From IMG/VR virus record IMGVR_UViG_3300046832_001626: a DNA stretch of 20,000 nt; one strand, written 5' to 3'. The position numbers and the translations under genes were made by a program. Positions 8,103 through 17,065 of this stretch are shown here, piece by piece. Origin of the DNA: an uncultured virus (IMG/VR IMGVR_UViG_3300046832_001626). Lineage: Duplodnaviria > Heunggongvirae > Uroviricota > Caudoviricetes. The notes beneath the pieces are model-generated. The model was given only the letters and a program-made list of their open reading frames with translations. It was not told the DNA's origin and did not search any database. Numbering within the stretch: the first letter of the stretch is position 1; the number at the start of each line of letters is the position of its first letter.

Positions 8103-8393
8103 ATGAGCAGCATCACTAATTTCATTCGCAAAATCAATAATATCACAAGTGCAGTTCGCTCAGTAACAGGAACTGTACGTGCTGTTAAAGATCTTAGAAA
8201 TCAGTTTCGTGGTAGAACACCATCAAGTGCATCGCGATCAACGCCGCAGATTCCTGGCACCACTCAGCCATCGTATCAATTTAAACCAATTGGACTTTCG
8301 CAAGTAAATTCCAGGAGTTCTGGTAGAAATGTGAATCCTAGACCTGTGAGACCTACTTCTGCGAAGCCTAAACCAGAACCAAAAATTCGATAA
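8103..8393 (+). CDS. Hypothetical small basic protein (96 aa)
   Basis: Fills the gp19-gp20 gap on the coding strand. Amphipathic N-terminus and a Pro/Ser/Arg-rich tail; only one D and one E. Confidence 0.65.
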   Translation: MSSITNFIRKINNITSAVRSVTGTVRAVKDLRNQFRGRTPSSASRSTPQIPGTTQPSYQFKPIGLSQVNSRSSGRNVNPRPVRPTSAKPKPEPKIR

Positions 8394-10114: not shown

Positions 10115-10315
10115 ATGAATAGCGAATCATTATTAAATGCAATTTTCTCTAGTGATGTGGAAGCAGCCAGCGAAGCACTTAATGGTGCTCTCGCATCAAA
10201 GGTTGCTAACGCATTAGAAGTTAAAAAAGTTGAAATCGCTTCTAATTTAATTTCTGCTCCAACAGAAATGAGTTCAGCAGAAGTAGCAACAGAAACAGTA
10301 GATGCAACAGAATAA
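10115..10315 (+). CDS. Small acidic prohead core protein (gp67-like position)
   Basis: 66 aa, GGAG SD, directly after the portal. The ALASKVANALEVKKVEIA helix resembles small T4-like prohead core proteins. Confidence 0.7.
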   Translation: MNSESLLNAIFSSDVEAASEALNGALASKVANALEVKKVEIASNLISAPTEMSSAEVATETVDATE

Positions 10316-11312
10316 CGAAGAAAATACAGAAACATTAGAAGAAGCTCGTGAAAACACAGAATTAAAAAGAGTAGTTTCACAAAGAGTTTCTTATATTACA
10401 AATGCTCTGAGATTACCTGTCTCAGCAGGCACGAGTTCACGCGCAATTCTGAATTATCTTAAGACAACAAGAAGTAATCCAAAATCATCACAATATGATG
10501 TTCTTAAAAGACTATCAAAGCAGCATCGTGATGCAGTGACAATGGTTGGTGGAGTAGTTCCAATCAGTGCAATTGTGAATGCATCAGACAATCAGATTAA
10601 AAAAATTGTTCGTGATGTTGCAACAACAAGTAAAAAATCAGTAAAAAAATTAAACGAAGAATTATTAAACGAAGAATTTCAACCACCTGCAATGCTTATC
10701 TTAAAGAGACAAGCCATTCGTCAGTTTCCAAATGCACAAAGAGTAGCAATGTATACTGATAACAAATATGGTCTGTCATTTACTGTTCCTTATGATGCAA
10801 TGGGAAGAGGATTCACAAGCGTAAATTATGCTGGCATGCCATCTACTGGCATCGCACCAACATCAGCAAGATTAAACGAAGGTATTGTAAAGCAACAAAA
10901 TAAACAATCAAAAGGAAATTTTTTGAGACAACTTGGTGCACATGCTTATATCAAAGGATTATCAAATAATGACCCTTCAATTAAAAGAGTAGGCAGAGAA
11001 GTAACGCAAAATCCAGATATCTCATCAGAAAAAACTGCAGCATTATATCGCAATTTACCAGACATGAAAACGCCACAATCATTGCGTGATGATCATGCTG
11101 CAATGCATTTACAAGAAGAAGGTGATTATTCTATCCTTACATTTACAACTGGTGAAGAAGTTTATCTTGACCAAAATACAATCAATTCCTTACAAAATGT
11201 TTTTGAATCTTTAAGCCAAGAAAATCAAGATAAGATGGTCGACATGCTTTTAGAAAATGCAGATACATTTAATCGTATTATTCAATTTGTTGAGTTAATT
11301 AAAGATGAGTAA
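10302..11312 (+). CDS. Hypothetical prohead-region protein (336 aa)
   Basis: Long ORF overlapping both neighbours. Contains the PPAMLILKRQAIRQFP...RVAMY...FTVPY block and several L-x-E motifs. Confidence 0.75.
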   Translation: MQQNNEENTETLEEARENTELKRVVSQRVSYITNALRLPVSAGTSSRAILNYLKTTRSNPKSSQYDVLKRLSKQHRDAVTMVGGVVPISAIVNASDNQIKKIVRDVATTSKKSVKKLNEELLNEEFQPPAMLILKRQAIRQFPNAQRVAMYTDNKYGLSFTVPYDAMGRGFTSVNYAGMPSTGIAPTSARLNEGIVKQQNKQSKGNFLRQLGAHAYIKGLSNNDPSIKRVGREVTQNPDISSEKTAALYRNLPDMKTPQSLRDDHAAMHLQEEGDYSILTFTTGEEVYLDQNTINSLQNVFESLSQENQDKMVDMLLENADTFNRIIQFVELIKDE

Positions 11313-12213
11313 CGATATTAACGAAAAATATGAAGATCGTTATGGTTCCGATTATGAGGAAGGGAAAGGCGCAAACAGTCAAAATATCGAAAACAGAAAG
11401 TTTGGAATCAAATCAACAGACACACTCGCTGATAAAATTTTAAAGATGAAAAAGAAAGGCGCATTTGACGAAGAAAAGAAAGCTGAAATGCCAGAAATAA
11501 ATGATGAAGAAGATAATGATGGTGAGGATGAAGAGAATAATAAAGAACTTTTTGATCATGAAGAAGAAAAAAGAATCGCTTTGATGCAATACTTAAATCC
11601 AAGAATTTTAAAATCGCGAGAAAAGAAAGAATACATGTCGAAAGCAAACATTCAAGAAGGCATTGCTGCTAGATTGAACGAGATTGCTTCTGCTAAACTA
11701 GATCTTTATAAGAAAGCAATTGCTATCAACGCAACTGTTGATTTGAGCGAAGCTCGCCGTATGAGCGCAGCAGAGAAGTTGGGTCGTGCATTTGATCTAG
11801 AACAACAAAGAAGTGCATTAAGCCGTCAACGTGGTATTGAACTGCTGAAAACACCAGAATCAATTCGCGCCGCTCATGATGCGCTTCATTCGAAGTCTGC
11901 AACAGAAGAAGAATCCGAAGTTGATCAACTCGATGAAGCAAGTCGCAATCCAAACGTTATGCGTCAGGGTAGAACAAAGATTGTAAAGGCTCGTGTGCGC
12001 GGTGGTAAGGTACAAAGAAGAAAAAGACTTTCTGCTGTGAAAGGTTATACCATTCGTGGTGGTAAATTAAAACGTATGTCAATGGCTGAAAGACTTCGCA
12101 GAAAGCGTGGTCAACGTCGTGGTAAGATTAAAAGAAAGGCAAAGATGGCTCGTGCTCTTATGAAAAGAAAAAGATCAATGAGAAGAAGAGCCTCTCTTGG
12201 ATTAAAGGAATAG
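11305..12213 (+). CDS. Prohead core protein, gp68-like C-terminus with acidic N-terminal extension
   Basis: Immediately upstream of gp21. Extremely Arg/Lys-rich C-terminus (IVKARVRGGKVQRRKRLS...KRKRSMRRRASLGL) following QLDE. Confidence 0.7.
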   Translation: MSNDINEKYEDRYGSDYEEGKGANSQNIENRKFGIKSTDTLADKILKMKKKGAFDEEKKAEMPEINDEEDNDGEDEENNKELFDHEEEKRIALMQYLNPRILKSREKKEYMSKANIQEGIAARLNEIASAKLDLYKKAIAINATVDLSEARRMSAAEKLGRAFDLEQQRSALSRQRGIELLKTPESIRAAHDALHSKSATEEESEVDQLDEASRNPNVMRQGRTKIVKARVRGGKVQRRKRLSAVKGYTIRGGKLKRMSMAERLRRKRGQRRGKIKRKAKMARALMKRKRSMRRRASLGLKE

Positions 12214-12217
12214 AAAC

Positions 12218-12862
12218 ATGAAACTTATTACAGAAACAGTTGAAGAAGTAAAGTATATCACCGAAGAAAATAACGGTGTTAAGACACTTTATATTCAAGG
12301 TCCATTTCTTGTCGCTGAGACAAAGAACCGTAATGGACGTTCATATCCAGTTAGCGTTCTCGAAAACGAAGTAAATCGTTATATGAAGGAATATGTGGAT
12401 AAGAACCGTGCATTCGGCGAACTTGGTCACCCAGAGTCTCCTACGATTAATCTAGAGCGCGTCTCTCATATGATTACTAATATCACAAAGAACGGAAACG
12501 TCTTTGAAGGTAAAGCAAAAGTTCTTGATACGCCTATGGGTAAGATCGCAAAGAATCTTATGGAAGCAGGGGCTACTCTTGGAGTATCTTCACGCGGTAT
12601 GGGTTCTTTGAAGAATGTAAACGGTACAAATATCGTGCAACCAGACTTTTACCTGGCTACAGCAGCCGATATCGTTGCAGATCCTTCTGCTCCTGGTGCT
12701 TTTGTACAGGGAATCATGGAAGGAAAGGAGTGGATTTGGGATAACGGATTAGTACGAGAGCTTGATGTCAATGCATATTATGAAGAAATTAAGACAGCAA
12801 AACAAAAGCAGCTTGATGACATCTCTTTAAAGATCTTCGAGAACTTTTTGTCAAAGTTATAA
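12218..12862 (+). CDS. gp21: Prohead protease gp21
   Basis: MKLITE, KNRNGRSY, catalytic GELGHP and GVSSRGMGS, DIVADPSAP motifs. Confidence 0.97.
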   Translation: MKLITETVEEVKYITEENNGVKTLYIQGPFLVAETKNRNGRSYPVSVLENEVNRYMKEYVDKNRAFGELGHPESPTINLERVSHMITNITKNGNVFEGKAKVLDTPMGKIAKNLMEAGATLGVSSRGMGSLKNVNGTNIVQPDFYLATAADIVADPSAPGAFVQGIMEGKEWIWDNGLVRELDVNAYYEEIKTAKQKQLDDISLKIFENFLSKL

Positions 12863-12898: not shown

Positions 12899-15800
12899 AT
12901 GGCGCATAAAACATTACATGAATCGGCAGCAGAAATTCTTGCAGCATCAGTTGCAGCTGCTGGCAAAGAACCAGTTCCAATGGCTACAGTTGCGCAGACT
13001 GCTGTTGACCTTGGCGGTGAAATGACTACAGGCGCAGTAACTCCTATTGGATCTGCAAGTTCAAGTCTTGTAAATGTTTCTCCAAAACCAGGTCGTCCAG
13101 GAGTGCCTGCTGAGCCAATGAAAACCGTGTCACCAATGTCTGGTGAGGGTGAAGCTGAAGAAGGCGACGAATCAGAAGAAATGGAATCTGAAGAAAAAGA
13201 CGAAAACGAGTTGATGGAAGAACTAATTCAAGAACACGGCGCAGAAATGGTTCTTGAAAGCCTCATCGCAGAATATGGTGATGAAAATGTATTCCATAGC
13301 ATTATGGAAGAATATACAGCTGAGTATGGTGAAGATCTAGTAAACGAGAAATTTGCAGAAACATTGTCTGAAGAAATTGGCGAAGACAATGTTATCAATC
13401 TAGTTGCCGAAAGCGTTATCGCAGAATTTGGTGAACTACAATTCACAGATGAAGAATTTGCTTCAATTCAAGAGCAATCACAAAACTTCATCACAGAAAT
13501 GCAAACACTTTCTGAGGAAGATTTCGATAACTATGTCGCAAATCTAACTGAAGAAGAATTAATTCAAGCAATTCAACTTTCTTCTCTCAACGAAGAATAT
13601 CTTGTTGAGTTCTTAAAGAAAATTGGTAAGGCACTCAAAAAGGGTGTAAAGGCTGTTGGTAAAGTTGCTGGTAAAGTTCTCAAAAATCCACTATTGAGCA
13701 CAGCACTATCATTTGCACTTCCAGGTGTTGGTGGTATCGCAGCAAAACTTGGTGGAAAACTCGCAAGTACTGCACTTGGTAAAGCTGTTTCAGGCATTGG
13801 TTCAAAGATTGCAGGTAGCGCACTCGGTAAAGCAGTAGGTGCTGGAGTTGGCAAACTCGGTTCAACAGTTCTTGGCAGAGGCGCATTGGCTGCTGGTAAA
13901 GAAGCACTCAAGGGCGGCGTGATGTCAAAATTGCAAGGTGGCAGTTTCAAACAAGGTGCTATCGGTGGTGCTGCTGGATCTATTGGCGGTGGACTCGGCG
14001 GTGCAGTAGCAGCGAGAACTGGCTCAAACACGCTAGGTAATTTGGTTGGCGACGTTGCTTCAACAAAACTTGCTGGCGGCAGATCTGCAGATATTAAAAA
14101 TACAGCATTAGGTTCAGTAAGCGGTGGTCTTAGCGCACTTGCTCAATCAAGAAGACAAGCAGCAGGTGGTGACGAAGGTGGTGCAGAAGATAATGTTGCC
14201 ACAGCAGCAGCGGATGATGAACCAGAAGAAAGAGTTGCTGCAGCTCCAAGACCGCAAACACCTCCAGCTGGAGCACAAAGATTACTTGCATTGCGCAACA
14301 GATTTGGTGCAGCCCGTAGTGTTGCCGAATCAGTAAAACAAAATGATTTTAATGTTCTTCTAGAAGAAATTGTCAATCAAACAAATCAAAACATTGAACA
14401 GCTTGATGATGATTCCTATGAAAACATTGTCAATGAATCAGATGCATTTGTTTCTGCTATTAATGAGTTGTCAGATGAAGAACTTGATAACTATTTCTCA
14501 GATTTAAATGAAGAACAACTAGTTTATGCTGTTTCTTTAATGAGTCTTGCAGAAGCAAGAACAGCACCTGCTCAAGCAAAACCAAGTGCTTGGAGCAAAC
14601 TCAAGAGCAGCAAACTCGCTAGAGCAGTACCCGTTCTTGGAACAGTTCTCGGCGCAGGTTATGCTGCCGATAGACTTCGTGCTGGAGATTATGTTGGCGC
14701 TGGATTAGGTGCAGCAAGTATGTTACCTGGTGCTGGATTAGCAGCTGTTGGCGCTGACATTGCCAGAGATTATATTCCTGGCATAAAATCAACACTTGGA
14801 TCAGAAGGTTCATTGCAGCAAGCAGCCAGCAAATCAAAAGTTGGTAAAGCAATTTCAAAGGCTACAGATCCAGTAGCACGTGTTGCATGGGATCCAGCTG
14901 CGGCAGCAATCGGCAAAGCACTATACAACGACAAAGGCGAAGCAAGATTAGCAAATGCCGCAGGGGCTGTACGTGATACCGCTTCAGCAGCTGCTAGAAA
15001 CGTCGCTGGAGCTGCTAGAAACGTTGCTGGTGGTGCAGCAAGAAGAGTTGCTTCTCTAGCATCTAATATGGTTCCAGCAGCAAGAGCTGCAACACCAGCT
15101 GCAAAACCTGCTGCTAAACCTGCAGCAAAGTCTGCTGCTAACCCAAAACAACAAGGTTCTGTTGGAGCAAATCTTGCATCATCAAGCGGTGGAATGTTTG
15201 CATCAAAATCAGATCGACTCAATCAATCAAAAGTTGATTCAGTTCTGGGTAAAGGTAAATTTAAAGCAGGTTCTGCAGAAGCAAATCTTGCATTACAACG
15301 TCACTTCAATAAAAAAGGCACAATGGGTGAATCAATGGAAATTGAACAAACAAACGAAGAAGAGTCACTACTTGAGCAAAATGCTCTTGAGTTTATCGAT
15401 CATCTTTCAACTCTTTCAGAGGAAGAAGCTGCAATCATCGTTGATCAATTATCAGATGAAGAAGCTGAGTACATTGATTCATTGATGGAAAGCAGATTAA
15501 ATCTATTAAGAGGCGGACGAGGTGCACGAGGTGCAGGCGGTAGAGGTAGAACACCAGCTGCCAGACCAGCTGCCAGACCAGCTGCCAGACCAGCTGGTGG
15601 AATCGGTAAAGGTAAAGCCGCTGCAGCAACTGCCGCTGGCGTTGCTGCTGGTTACGGCGCATCTAAAGCAGTAGATGCATTAACAGGTTCTAATGCTCCA
15701 GCAAAACCAGATAAACCAGTTAAACCATCTAAACCAGCTGCAATGAGCGATGAGCAAAAGTATGGTAAGATCGGCGCTGAGATTCGTAAATTGGATCCAG

Positions 15801-17065
15801 AAGCATATAAGAATAGACCAAAATCTGCACAAGGAAATATGGATCTTTTGAATCAACTAAGAGCCAAGAAAGCTGCTCCAGCAGCTGCAGCTCCAGCAGT
15901 TGAACCTGCTCAAGAACCAGCAGCACCTGAGCAAGCAGAAAACGATTACGGTAAATCTATGCTTGATCAACTTGATAAAGATGTTCAAGATATCCAATCA
16001 CAACAACCAGCAAAACCAGCACAAGCTGGTAAGGGTTTGATGAGAACCGCAACTGGTGAAAAGACACGTTTAAGAAAAGCAATTCCAAATGAACTTGCAG
16101 GTGTTGCAAATAAATTAGGAAATTTATTCAAGGCAAAAGAACTTGGCTGGAAACCAGGGACTGATCGCTCTGGAAAACCAAAAAATGAGGGACAGACAAT
16201 GTCAGAAGAACATGAAGAACAATATGAAATGATTGATGATTTAAATGACGGTTTGACTGATGAGCAAATTCAAGAACAAAGAAAGAACTCAATCAAAGAA
16301 ACAGTCAATCAATATAAAGGTAATATGAGAGAAGACGTTGATGCTCTATTCAACGGTGAATCACTCTCAGAAGATTTCCGTGTCAAAGCAACTTTGATCT
16401 TTGAATCAGCTGTAACATCACGTGTTGAAGCAATTCTAGAGCAAGTAATGGCTGACAACGAAGAAGTTCTTGCCAATGCATATGAAGATATGAAGGGCGA
16501 ACTAACTGAACAAGTTGATGAATATCTCAACTATGTTGTCGATCAGTGGATGGCACAAAATCAAGTTGCTATCGAAACAGGTTTACGTTCAGAACTCGCT
16601 GAAGACTTCATCTCTGGTCTACGCGCTCTATTCCAAGAACATTACATCGAAATTCCTGAAGAGAAGGTTGATGTTGCAGAAACACTTGCAACAGAACTTG
16701 CAGATCTAAGCACTCAAGCACAAGAATATATTGGGGCACAAGAACTCGCAATTGCCGATCTTCAAGAAGAACTTAACACTGTTAAGAAAGAAAAAGCAAT
16801 TAATAATTTCTGCGAAGGACTTACACTAGTTCAAGCAGAAAAAATGAAATCACTCGCAGAGAGTGTGGAGTTCACCGCAGAAGGTGATTTTGAAGAAAAA
16901 CTCGCTGTACTACGCGAGAACTACTTCCCAACTAAAGTACAAGTGAGAAGTGAGGTAAAGGAAATTCAGCAAGCAATGCTTAATGAAGAACCTGAAGTAG
17001 AACAAACAAACTCTGTCATGGCTCGTTATGTTAAATCAATCTCTAAAACGGCTCCAAAAGCCTAA
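12899..17065 (+). CDS. gp22: Prohead core scaffold gp22, greatly expanded (1388 aa) by an internal modular insertion
   Basis: Lies between gp21 and gp23. The C-terminal part from 16325 is canonical gp22 (EDVDALFNGESLSEDFRVKATLIFESAV, VDEYLNYVVDQWM, GLRSELAEDFISGLRALFQEHYIEIPEEKVDV, LRENYF, MARYV). One uninterrupted frame. Confidence 0.92.
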   Translation: MAHKTLHESAAEILAASVAAAGKEPVPMATVAQTAVDLGGEMTTGAVTPIGSASSSLVNVSPKPGRPGVPAEPMKTVSPMSGEGEAEEGDESEEMESEEKDENELMEELIQEHGAEMVLESLIAEYGDENVFHSIMEEYTAEYGEDLVNEKFAETLSEEIGEDNVINLVAESVIAEFGELQFTDEEFASIQEQSQNFITEMQTLSEEDFDNYVANLTEEELIQAIQLSSLNEEYLVEFLKKIGKALKKGVKAVGKVAGKVLKNPLLSTALSFALPGVGGIAAKLGGKLASTALGKAVSGIGSKIAGSALGKAVGAGVGKLGSTVLGRGALAAGKEALKGGVMSKLQGGSFKQGAIGGAAGSIGGGLGGAVAARTGSNTLGNLVGDVASTKLAGGRSADIKNTALGSVSGGLSALAQSRRQAAGGDEGGAEDNVATAAADDEPEERVAAAPRPQTPPAGAQRLLALRNRFGAARSVAESVKQNDFNVLLEEIVNQTNQNIEQLDDDSYENIVNESDAFVSAINELSDEELDNYFSDLNEEQLVYAVSLMSLAEARTAPAQAKPSAWSKLKSSKLARAVPVLGTVLGAGYAADRLRAGDYVGAGLGAASMLPGAGLAAVGADIARDYIPGIKSTLGSEGSLQQAASKSKVGKAISKATDPVARVAWDPAAAAIGKALYNDKGEARLANAAGAVRDTASAAARNVAGAARNVAGGAARRVASLASNMVPAARAATPAAKPAAKPAAKSAANPKQQGSVGANLASSSGGMFASKSDRLNQSKVDSVLGKGKFKAGSAEANLALQRHFNKKGTMGESMEIEQTNEEESLLEQNALEFIDHLSTLSEEEAAIIVDQLSDEEAEYIDSLMESRLNLLRGGRGARGAGGRGRTPAARPAARPAARPAGGIGKGKAAAATAAGVAAGYGASKAVDALTGSNAPAKPDKPVKPSKPAAMSDEQKYGKIGAEIRKLDPEAYKNRPKSAQGNMDLLNQLRAKKAAPAAAAPAVEPAQEPAAPEQAENDYGKSMLDQLDKDVQDIQSQQPAKPAQAGKGLMRTATGEKTRLRKAIPNELAGVANKLGNLFKAKELGWKPGTDRSGKPKNEGQTMSEEHEEQYEMIDDLNDGLTDEQIQEQRKNSIKETVNQYKGNMREDVDALFNGESLSEDFRVKATLIFESAVTSRVEAILEQVMADNEEVLANAYEDMKGELTEQVDEYLNYVVDQWMAQNQVAIETGLRSELAEDFISGLRALFQEHYIEIPEEKVDVAETLATELADLSTQAQEYIGAQELAIADLQEELNTVKKEKAINNFCEGLTLVQAEKMKSLAESVEFTAEGDFEEKLAVLRENYFPTKVQVRSEVKEIQQAMLNEEPEVEQTNSVMARYVKSISKTAPKA
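14990..15031 (+). repeat. 21-nt tandem repeat x2 (AARNVAG)
   Basis: gctgctagaaacgtcgctgga / gctgctagaaacgttgctggt. Confidence 0.85.
15554..15596 (+). repeat. Perfect 12-nt tandem repeat, about 3.5 copies (PAAR peptide repeat)
   Basis: ccagctgccaga x3 followed by ccagctg. Confidence 0.9.

Follow-up and report, generated by a model that had tools for sequence, protein, structure and literature searches.

Why a T4-like phage should carry a prohead scaffold protein of 1388 residues, more than three times the usual length, is the question raised by the locus analysed here. The window, i.e., the whole 20,000-nucleotide stretch of an uncultured virus (IMG/VR IMGVR_UViG_3300046832_001626), is a head-gene block of a T4-like phage in which the genes run in the order portal, a weak gp67 match, two ORFs at core positions, gp21, the 1388-aa ORF and gp23; this is the T4-like order gp20-gp67-gp68-gp21-gp22-gp23, with the two core-position ORFs lacking a family assignment. 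The gene of the gp21 prohead protease, the presumed cutter (12218..12862, plus strand, as are all features of the long ORF given below; PF03420, E 3e-34; phrog_207), is followed by that of an expanded T4-like gp22 prohead scaffold (12899..17065; PF25623, E 9e-62; phrog_237, E 1e-69), lying between gp21 and gp23. Its gp22 domain is confined to aa1143-1380 (16325..17038), the canonical scaffold core recognised by PF25623, which scores 209 bits against a cut-off of 27. The protein is oversized because three acidic modules with likely cut sites alternate with long basic segments, and from this arrangement the scaffold probably doubles as a multi-passenger carrier into the head.

A search of 50,697 annotated phage records gave 2310 that match the 1388-aa ORF, none over more than 80% of its length, and the best 30 of these align to the gp22 core only. 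An assembly artefact was rejected, as the full-length ORF is present at 100% identity in two further contigs (L001 and L002). The gp22s of six short relatives measure 370-402 aa, the closest being that of L014 (402 aa), with a core ~65% identical to that of the long relative P0010. When 13 long and 6 short gp22 cores were placed in a tree, those of the long proteins grouped together to one side of a modestly supported branch (80/80). A single insertion of ~700-1000 residues between the usual gp22 N-terminus and the core, followed by variation, is thus probable.

Neighbouring genes of the window display related features. The ORF at 11305-12213, just before gp21, differs in length between genomes (302 aa in the window, against 100 aa for L014 and 478 aa for L013) and contains acidic stretches ending in [IL]-x-E followed by basic stretches. 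A 79-aa insert at 10881-11117, inside the ORF at 10302-11312, has L-x-E sites at its bounds and shares 40-42% identity with inserts that L010 and L013 carry one gene further on, in the ORF just before gp21; judging from this similarity, it is cargo moved between core genes. The whole head-core gene block seems to be expanding. Additionally, a 96-aa basic ORF (net +16) without a family match is located at 8103-8393, between the tail-tube and portal genes.

A preliminary description of this DNA had claimed three homologous acidic modules within one ORF, and all the segments it quoted are present in the ORF at 12899-17065. Module 1 (aa182-232), predicted to form three helices, occupies with a 5-residue extension 13442..13609, with predicted cuts after E232 and E237: the module proper (13442-13594) ends in L-N-E, and the second site, L-V-E, lies at aa237 (13609). 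Module 2 (aa502-552) is located at 14402..14554, with a predicted cut after E552, and module 3, of a short type (aa817-864), at 15347..15490, with a predicted cut after E864. The earlier coordinates and motif are amended here in detail: the starts given for modules 1 and 2 lie four codons ahead of the letters quoted, module 3 runs from 15347, and the spacer described as x6 is x7 in all three copies. Module 1 is preceded by a further acidic block (aa105-181; 13211..13441) with 7 more [IL]-x-E sites, modelled as helical at a pLDDT of ~60, and in the non-scaffold proteins P0013 and P0014 module 1 has a comparable block ahead of it.

The proposed repeat similarity survived composition-preserving shuffling. 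The score observed between modules 1 and 2 was reached in 0/20,000 shuffles, and by this comparison the two are homologous beyond doubt; their DNA has diverged as claimed, with identity at 81/153 bases and 22/51 third positions, and the duplication was thus not recent. Pairs including module 3 are weak (27/20,000 with module 1, 72/20,000 with module 2), and its tie to modules 1 and 2 is drawn through profiles of relatives only: against a profile built from 11 orthologues of module 1, module 3 scores only 9 bits (E 0.6), compared with 27 bits (E 1.4e-6) against one built from 10 short-type copies found in relatives; the module-1 and short-type profiles align to each other with an hhalign probability of 96% (E 2.5e-9). 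Module 1 was modelled by AlphaFold as three helices (pLDDT 80-88), and a model of aa103-424 was of low confidence beyond the module (mean pLDDT 51); when module 1 was predicted in complex with the N-terminal 63 aa of passenger 1, the basic segment that follows it, the score was 0.01, read as 'no answer'. Across 18 aligned module rows one Leu is invariant (18/18), and a hydrophobic pattern and fixed spacing are kept. A Pfam search of these rows returned no family matching more than 3/18 and none at E below 5e-4, PDB matches to the module were protein A B-domains, and the model of the module plus helix gave a best Z of 6.5 against the PDB, in the range of generic helical matches, and no match at E 0.001 in a viral fold library. 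These searches thus gave no clear match of the module to a Pfam family or solved fold. Before the gp22 core lies another acidic block (~16190-16280, aa1097-1126) with a conserved Leu-Thr-acid-Glu-Gln-Ile box, which scores below zero on the module profile and is possibly a degenerate fourth module.

T4 gp21 cuts after L/I-X-E (PMC9026906), shreds gp22, and trims propeptides from internal proteins that stay (PMC9026906, PMC9958956). As had been proposed, each of the three modules ends at a site of this type, an L-x-E directly before a basic segment. For a broader count, 60 module copies were collapsed to 31 at less than 60% identity; 5 false matches, the near-duplicates P0004 and P0063, and the cluster members P0030-P0062 had been left out beforehand, and P0029 (79 aa, uncertain) was retained. 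Reading up to the first K/R, 23 of these 31 non-redundant copies have as their final acidic residue the Glu of [IL]-x-E, usually before basic sequence, compared with a mean of 5.7 and a maximum of 14 in 10,000 shufflings; among comparable acidic-stretch ends in 68 other ORFs of the contig, 9/78 carry the motif. The association of modules with L-x-E/basic boundaries, on which the preliminary description had staked its reading, is present. Within the clade the motif end was found in 13/15 copies, and outside it in 10/16, a count that is partly circular since the profiles for distant copies end on L-x-E columns. A follower of net +2 or more stands after 23/31 modules, a figure that the boundary rule itself biases upward, and 6/31 (in P0019, P0022, P0029 and P0017) have no basic follower.

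Within the 1388-aa gp22, the listed [IL]-x-E sites all lie outside the three basic blocks, and an in-silico digest leaves the fragments 238-489 (+18), 553-826 (+17) and 865-1126 (+9). A site-free fragment of 232-319 aa, net +7 to +18, follows module 1 in 16/16 long gp22s, and positive site-free fragments of 60 aa or more were found in 0/6 short ones. With so little Glu in the three passengers, an absence of sites is what would be expected (probability of none 0.84, 0.76 and 0.38, respectively), and a test for Glu avoidance gave no significance (p 0.84 for the 1388-aa protein, 0.05 when related proteins were pooled).

Predicted passenger 1 (aa238-489; 13610..14365; net +18) opens with a conserved, Lys-rich, cationic amphipathic helix, followed by a Gly/Ala-rich, moderately hydrophobic stretch. 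Its first 18-mer has a net charge of +7 and a moment of 0.77 (99th percentile 0.53 over 20,164 contig windows), seven Lys/Phe positions of the helix are invariant in 7/7 rows, and the helix recurs in a non-scaffold protein. Predicted passenger 2 (aa553-826; 14555..15376; net +17) comprises a Gly/Ala-rich hydrophobic stretch and Ala/Pro/Lys repeats, and predicted passenger 3 (aa865-1126; 15491..16276; net +9) an Arg/Gly-rich start and a Pro/Ala/Lys-rich middle; both are poorly conserved, of low complexity, and vary widely among relatives. No significant family match was obtained for the passengers of the 1388-aa gp22, nor any Pfam match for the first 98 aa of passenger 2, and in one relative (P0016) passenger 2 matches LysM (26 bits, cut-off 21). 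A PT-TG lead for passenger 2 (atlas 0.77, all atlas matches being below 0.9) was dropped, having no Pfam confirmation.

The acidic spacers had also been likened to the propieces of antimicrobial peptides, in whose precursors an acidic propiece and a protease site precede a cationic amphipathic helix. On this account the module would mainly be a charge-neutralising propiece, masking a membrane-toxic cationic segment until cleavage, which we consider unlikely. The charges of the acidic and basic blocks do roughly balance (-36/+23, -22/+24, -19/+21), acidic and basic insert counts covary over 16 related gp22s (rho 0.73, the relatives not being independent), and the order of acidic spacer, protease site and cationic helix is reproduced by passenger 1, whose charge and moment, together with the mostly basic followers, speak for such a role. 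However, passengers 2 and 3 do not start in this way (moments of 0.24 and 0.43), leaving one match in three; 6/31 modules lack a basic follower, and some copies stand in tandem or C-terminally; the hydrophobic pattern and fixed spacing exceed what charge alone would need, and the followers are unrelated. The likeness also fails as to cargo size: the products are ~260-aa polypeptides and not short peptides, with no signal peptide, a capsid protease as the cutter, and no evidence of homology. Charge neutralisation may be a secondary role of the module.

The claim of a cassette that is reused together with its gp21-type site fared better, as the module recurs in unrelated proteins and mostly has the [IL]-x-E end described above, and sequence and profile searches, the latter as had been suggested, located it in at least 8 non-scaffold proteins. 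A search with aa180-600 returned 14 relatives, namely 12 long gp22s and the non-scaffold P0013 and P0014, which carry module 1 plus a passenger-1 homologue. All 16 long gp22s carry two or three copies, with three only in the 1388-aa gp22 and P0002, and two in the others. The module profile gave 17 matches among 1.84 billion representatives: 4 gp22s, one of P0013/P0014, 6 further non-scaffold proteins with 1-3 copies each, one short uncertain protein, and 5 judged false (P0020, P0021, P0023, P0024 and P0027, corresponding to MgtE_N, protein A B-domain and sigma70-like repeats). A second search added P0071 and further members of the P0025 family. P0018 and P0071 each contain two module-plus-basic units, P0019 and P0022 have the module in tandem without cargo, and elsewhere some copies are at the C-terminus. 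We infer that the non-scaffold carriers are phage head proteins. Neither the window's own 73.9-kb contig nor S-CRM01 yielded a further copy of the module, and three near-complete T4-like-motif contigs likewise gave none; no relatives of P0018 were found among annotated phages, and no loci were found for P0018 and P0019.

Two other motifs were observed in these carriers. In P0018 and P0071 a short Met-Thr-Phe-x-x-Phe-Leu motif, which may resemble the T4 capsid-targeting sequence, stands directly before a module. P0013 and P0014 end in a ~36-aa Asp/Asn-rich motif that is present in 88 viral-contig stretches, including L033-L112, and has PHROG matches with no assigned function.

A second acidic module, of 42 aa, was found in cyanophages (phrog_3708/phrog_22522), without a Pfam family or assigned function. 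It ends in I-x-E in 12/16 copies and has a basic follower in 11/16, and S-CRM01 carries four copies. This module is widespread (L127-L133; L134, which is S-CRM01 g291 and g292; L138-L143), with varied basic tails, sometimes alone or C-terminal. Both modules are acidic, have an [IL]-x-E-type end and share one cargo, as a single basic segment follows the gp22-type module in P0025/P0026 and the cyanophage module in the L127-L133 loci, on contigs of cyanophage type; the two profiles align at an hhalign probability of 15% (P 0.0017), with weak cross-scores above shuffles. Unlike the gp22-type module, the cyanophage one was not seen inside any gp22.

Equally unlikely in our view is a purely structural reading, in which the modules supply an enlarged scaffold with additional units for building the core or contacting the shell, and the basic segments, as flexible fillers or determinants of head size, are broken down or expelled and play no later part. 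In T4, gp22, gp67 and gp68 are fragmented by cleavage and have been connected with head size (PMC9026906); the cargo-free tandem modules of P0019 and P0022, the low complexity and variability of passengers 2 and 3, and the weakly gp67-like segment that the module follows in the P0025 family (hhalign 18%, E 0.0013) point in the same direction. Against this, site-free fragments of ~260 aa would be hard to clear via shell pores, the passenger 1 helix is conserved and also occurs outside scaffolds, and LysM was matched in one relative. Near-neutral accretion, in which core genes tolerate inserts, those flanked by Glu-rich helices are cut away and cassettes spread without specific function, would suit the swelling and insert swapping of neighbouring core genes and the variation in module number between 2 and 3, but is improbable given that 16/16 relatives retain ~700-1000 additional residues on a protein present in many copies, with module 1 and passenger 1 conserved.

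We rather favour, as fairly probable, the reading in which the module is an internal propeptide, and the scaffold a polyprotein from which gp21 would free three basic passengers of ~260 aa. This reading draws on the specificity of T4 gp21 and the [IL]-x-E ends of the modules, on the basic fragment common to all long gp22s, on the recurrence of the module in non-scaffold proteins, on the basic segment found after two different acidic modules, and on the LysM match in P0016. Counted against it are the modules lacking a basic follower, the poor conservation of passengers 2 and 3, the partly circular count outside the clade, the low Glu content of the passengers, the low-confidence model of passenger 1, and the 5/17 false profile matches. 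The acidic helical module of ~45-50 residues would bind the prohead core and hold the neighbouring basic segment there until gp21, presumably cutting at [IL]-x-E as in T4, releases it; the site-rich spacers and the gp22 core would then be shredded and leave, and the passengers would stay in the head. Fusion to gp22 would load the three passengers in step with the scaffold. The copy number of gp22 in T4 is ~580, and if it applied here the passengers would total roughly 45 MDa. Most speculatively, passenger 1, which combines an amphipathic helix and a Gly/Ala-rich stretch, might be ejected and act on the host membrane, and passengers 2 and 3 might bind DNA or represent variable ejection cargo. 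Doubtful at present is the fuller version, in which uncultured T4-like phages use the module as a portable, folded tag for targeting to the core, serial fusion makes a polyprotein of gp22, the core protein of highest abundance, and so loads hundreds of copies of membrane-active and DNA-binding ejection proteins, and passenger 1 breaches the host inner membrane during DNA entry.

According to PMC9958956, it is still a mystery how proteins are recruited to the prohead core of T4, and the structure of that core has yet to be resolved. A portable, repeated 50-residue module with its own cut site offers a small, testable candidate for a core-binding unit, and possibly a larger alternative to the T4 CTS for the loading of capsid cargo. 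If the internal-propeptide reading is right, many 'hypothetical' T4-like proteins made of an acidic module and a basic tail should be internal head proteins that undergo processing, and a scaffold should be able to serve as a cargo carrier as well.

With T4 gp22, the 1388-aa protein shares the core domain, the position between gp21 and gp23, and many [IL]-x-E sites; T4 gp22, however, is degraded to small peptides, whereas the present protein is predicted to leave three long basic fragments. The internal proteins of T4 are brought in by short propeptides and, once trimmed, are retained (PMC9026906 section 2.6, PMC9958956). The CTS on IPI-III and Alt, as described there, is like the module a reusable propeptide ending in a gp21 site with unrelated cargo next, but is 10-19 aa long, N-terminal, and present once per stand-alone protein (PMC9026906, PMC9958956); the module, a helical unit of 45-50 aa, is internal and repeated and forms part of the scaffold itself, and so differs from a CTS in size and position. 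The ejection proteins of SPN3US and phiKZ have propeptides of more than 100 aa with several cuts after Glu, and mature SPN3US gp47 has a predicted N-terminal membrane helix (PMC5694885 and PMC7411985); these belong to a different phage group, use an A/S-x-E motif and carry N-terminal propeptides on separate genes, the likeness drawn here being one of design. A literature search, with subscription papers mostly beyond reach, yielded no account of an expanded gp22 or its module. The parts are known in kind, and the internal, repeated and portable module inside gp22 is new in the literature searched; by analogy, the prohead-core-targeting propeptide of T4 and SPN3US is a better-documented precedent for it than the propiece of antimicrobial peptides.
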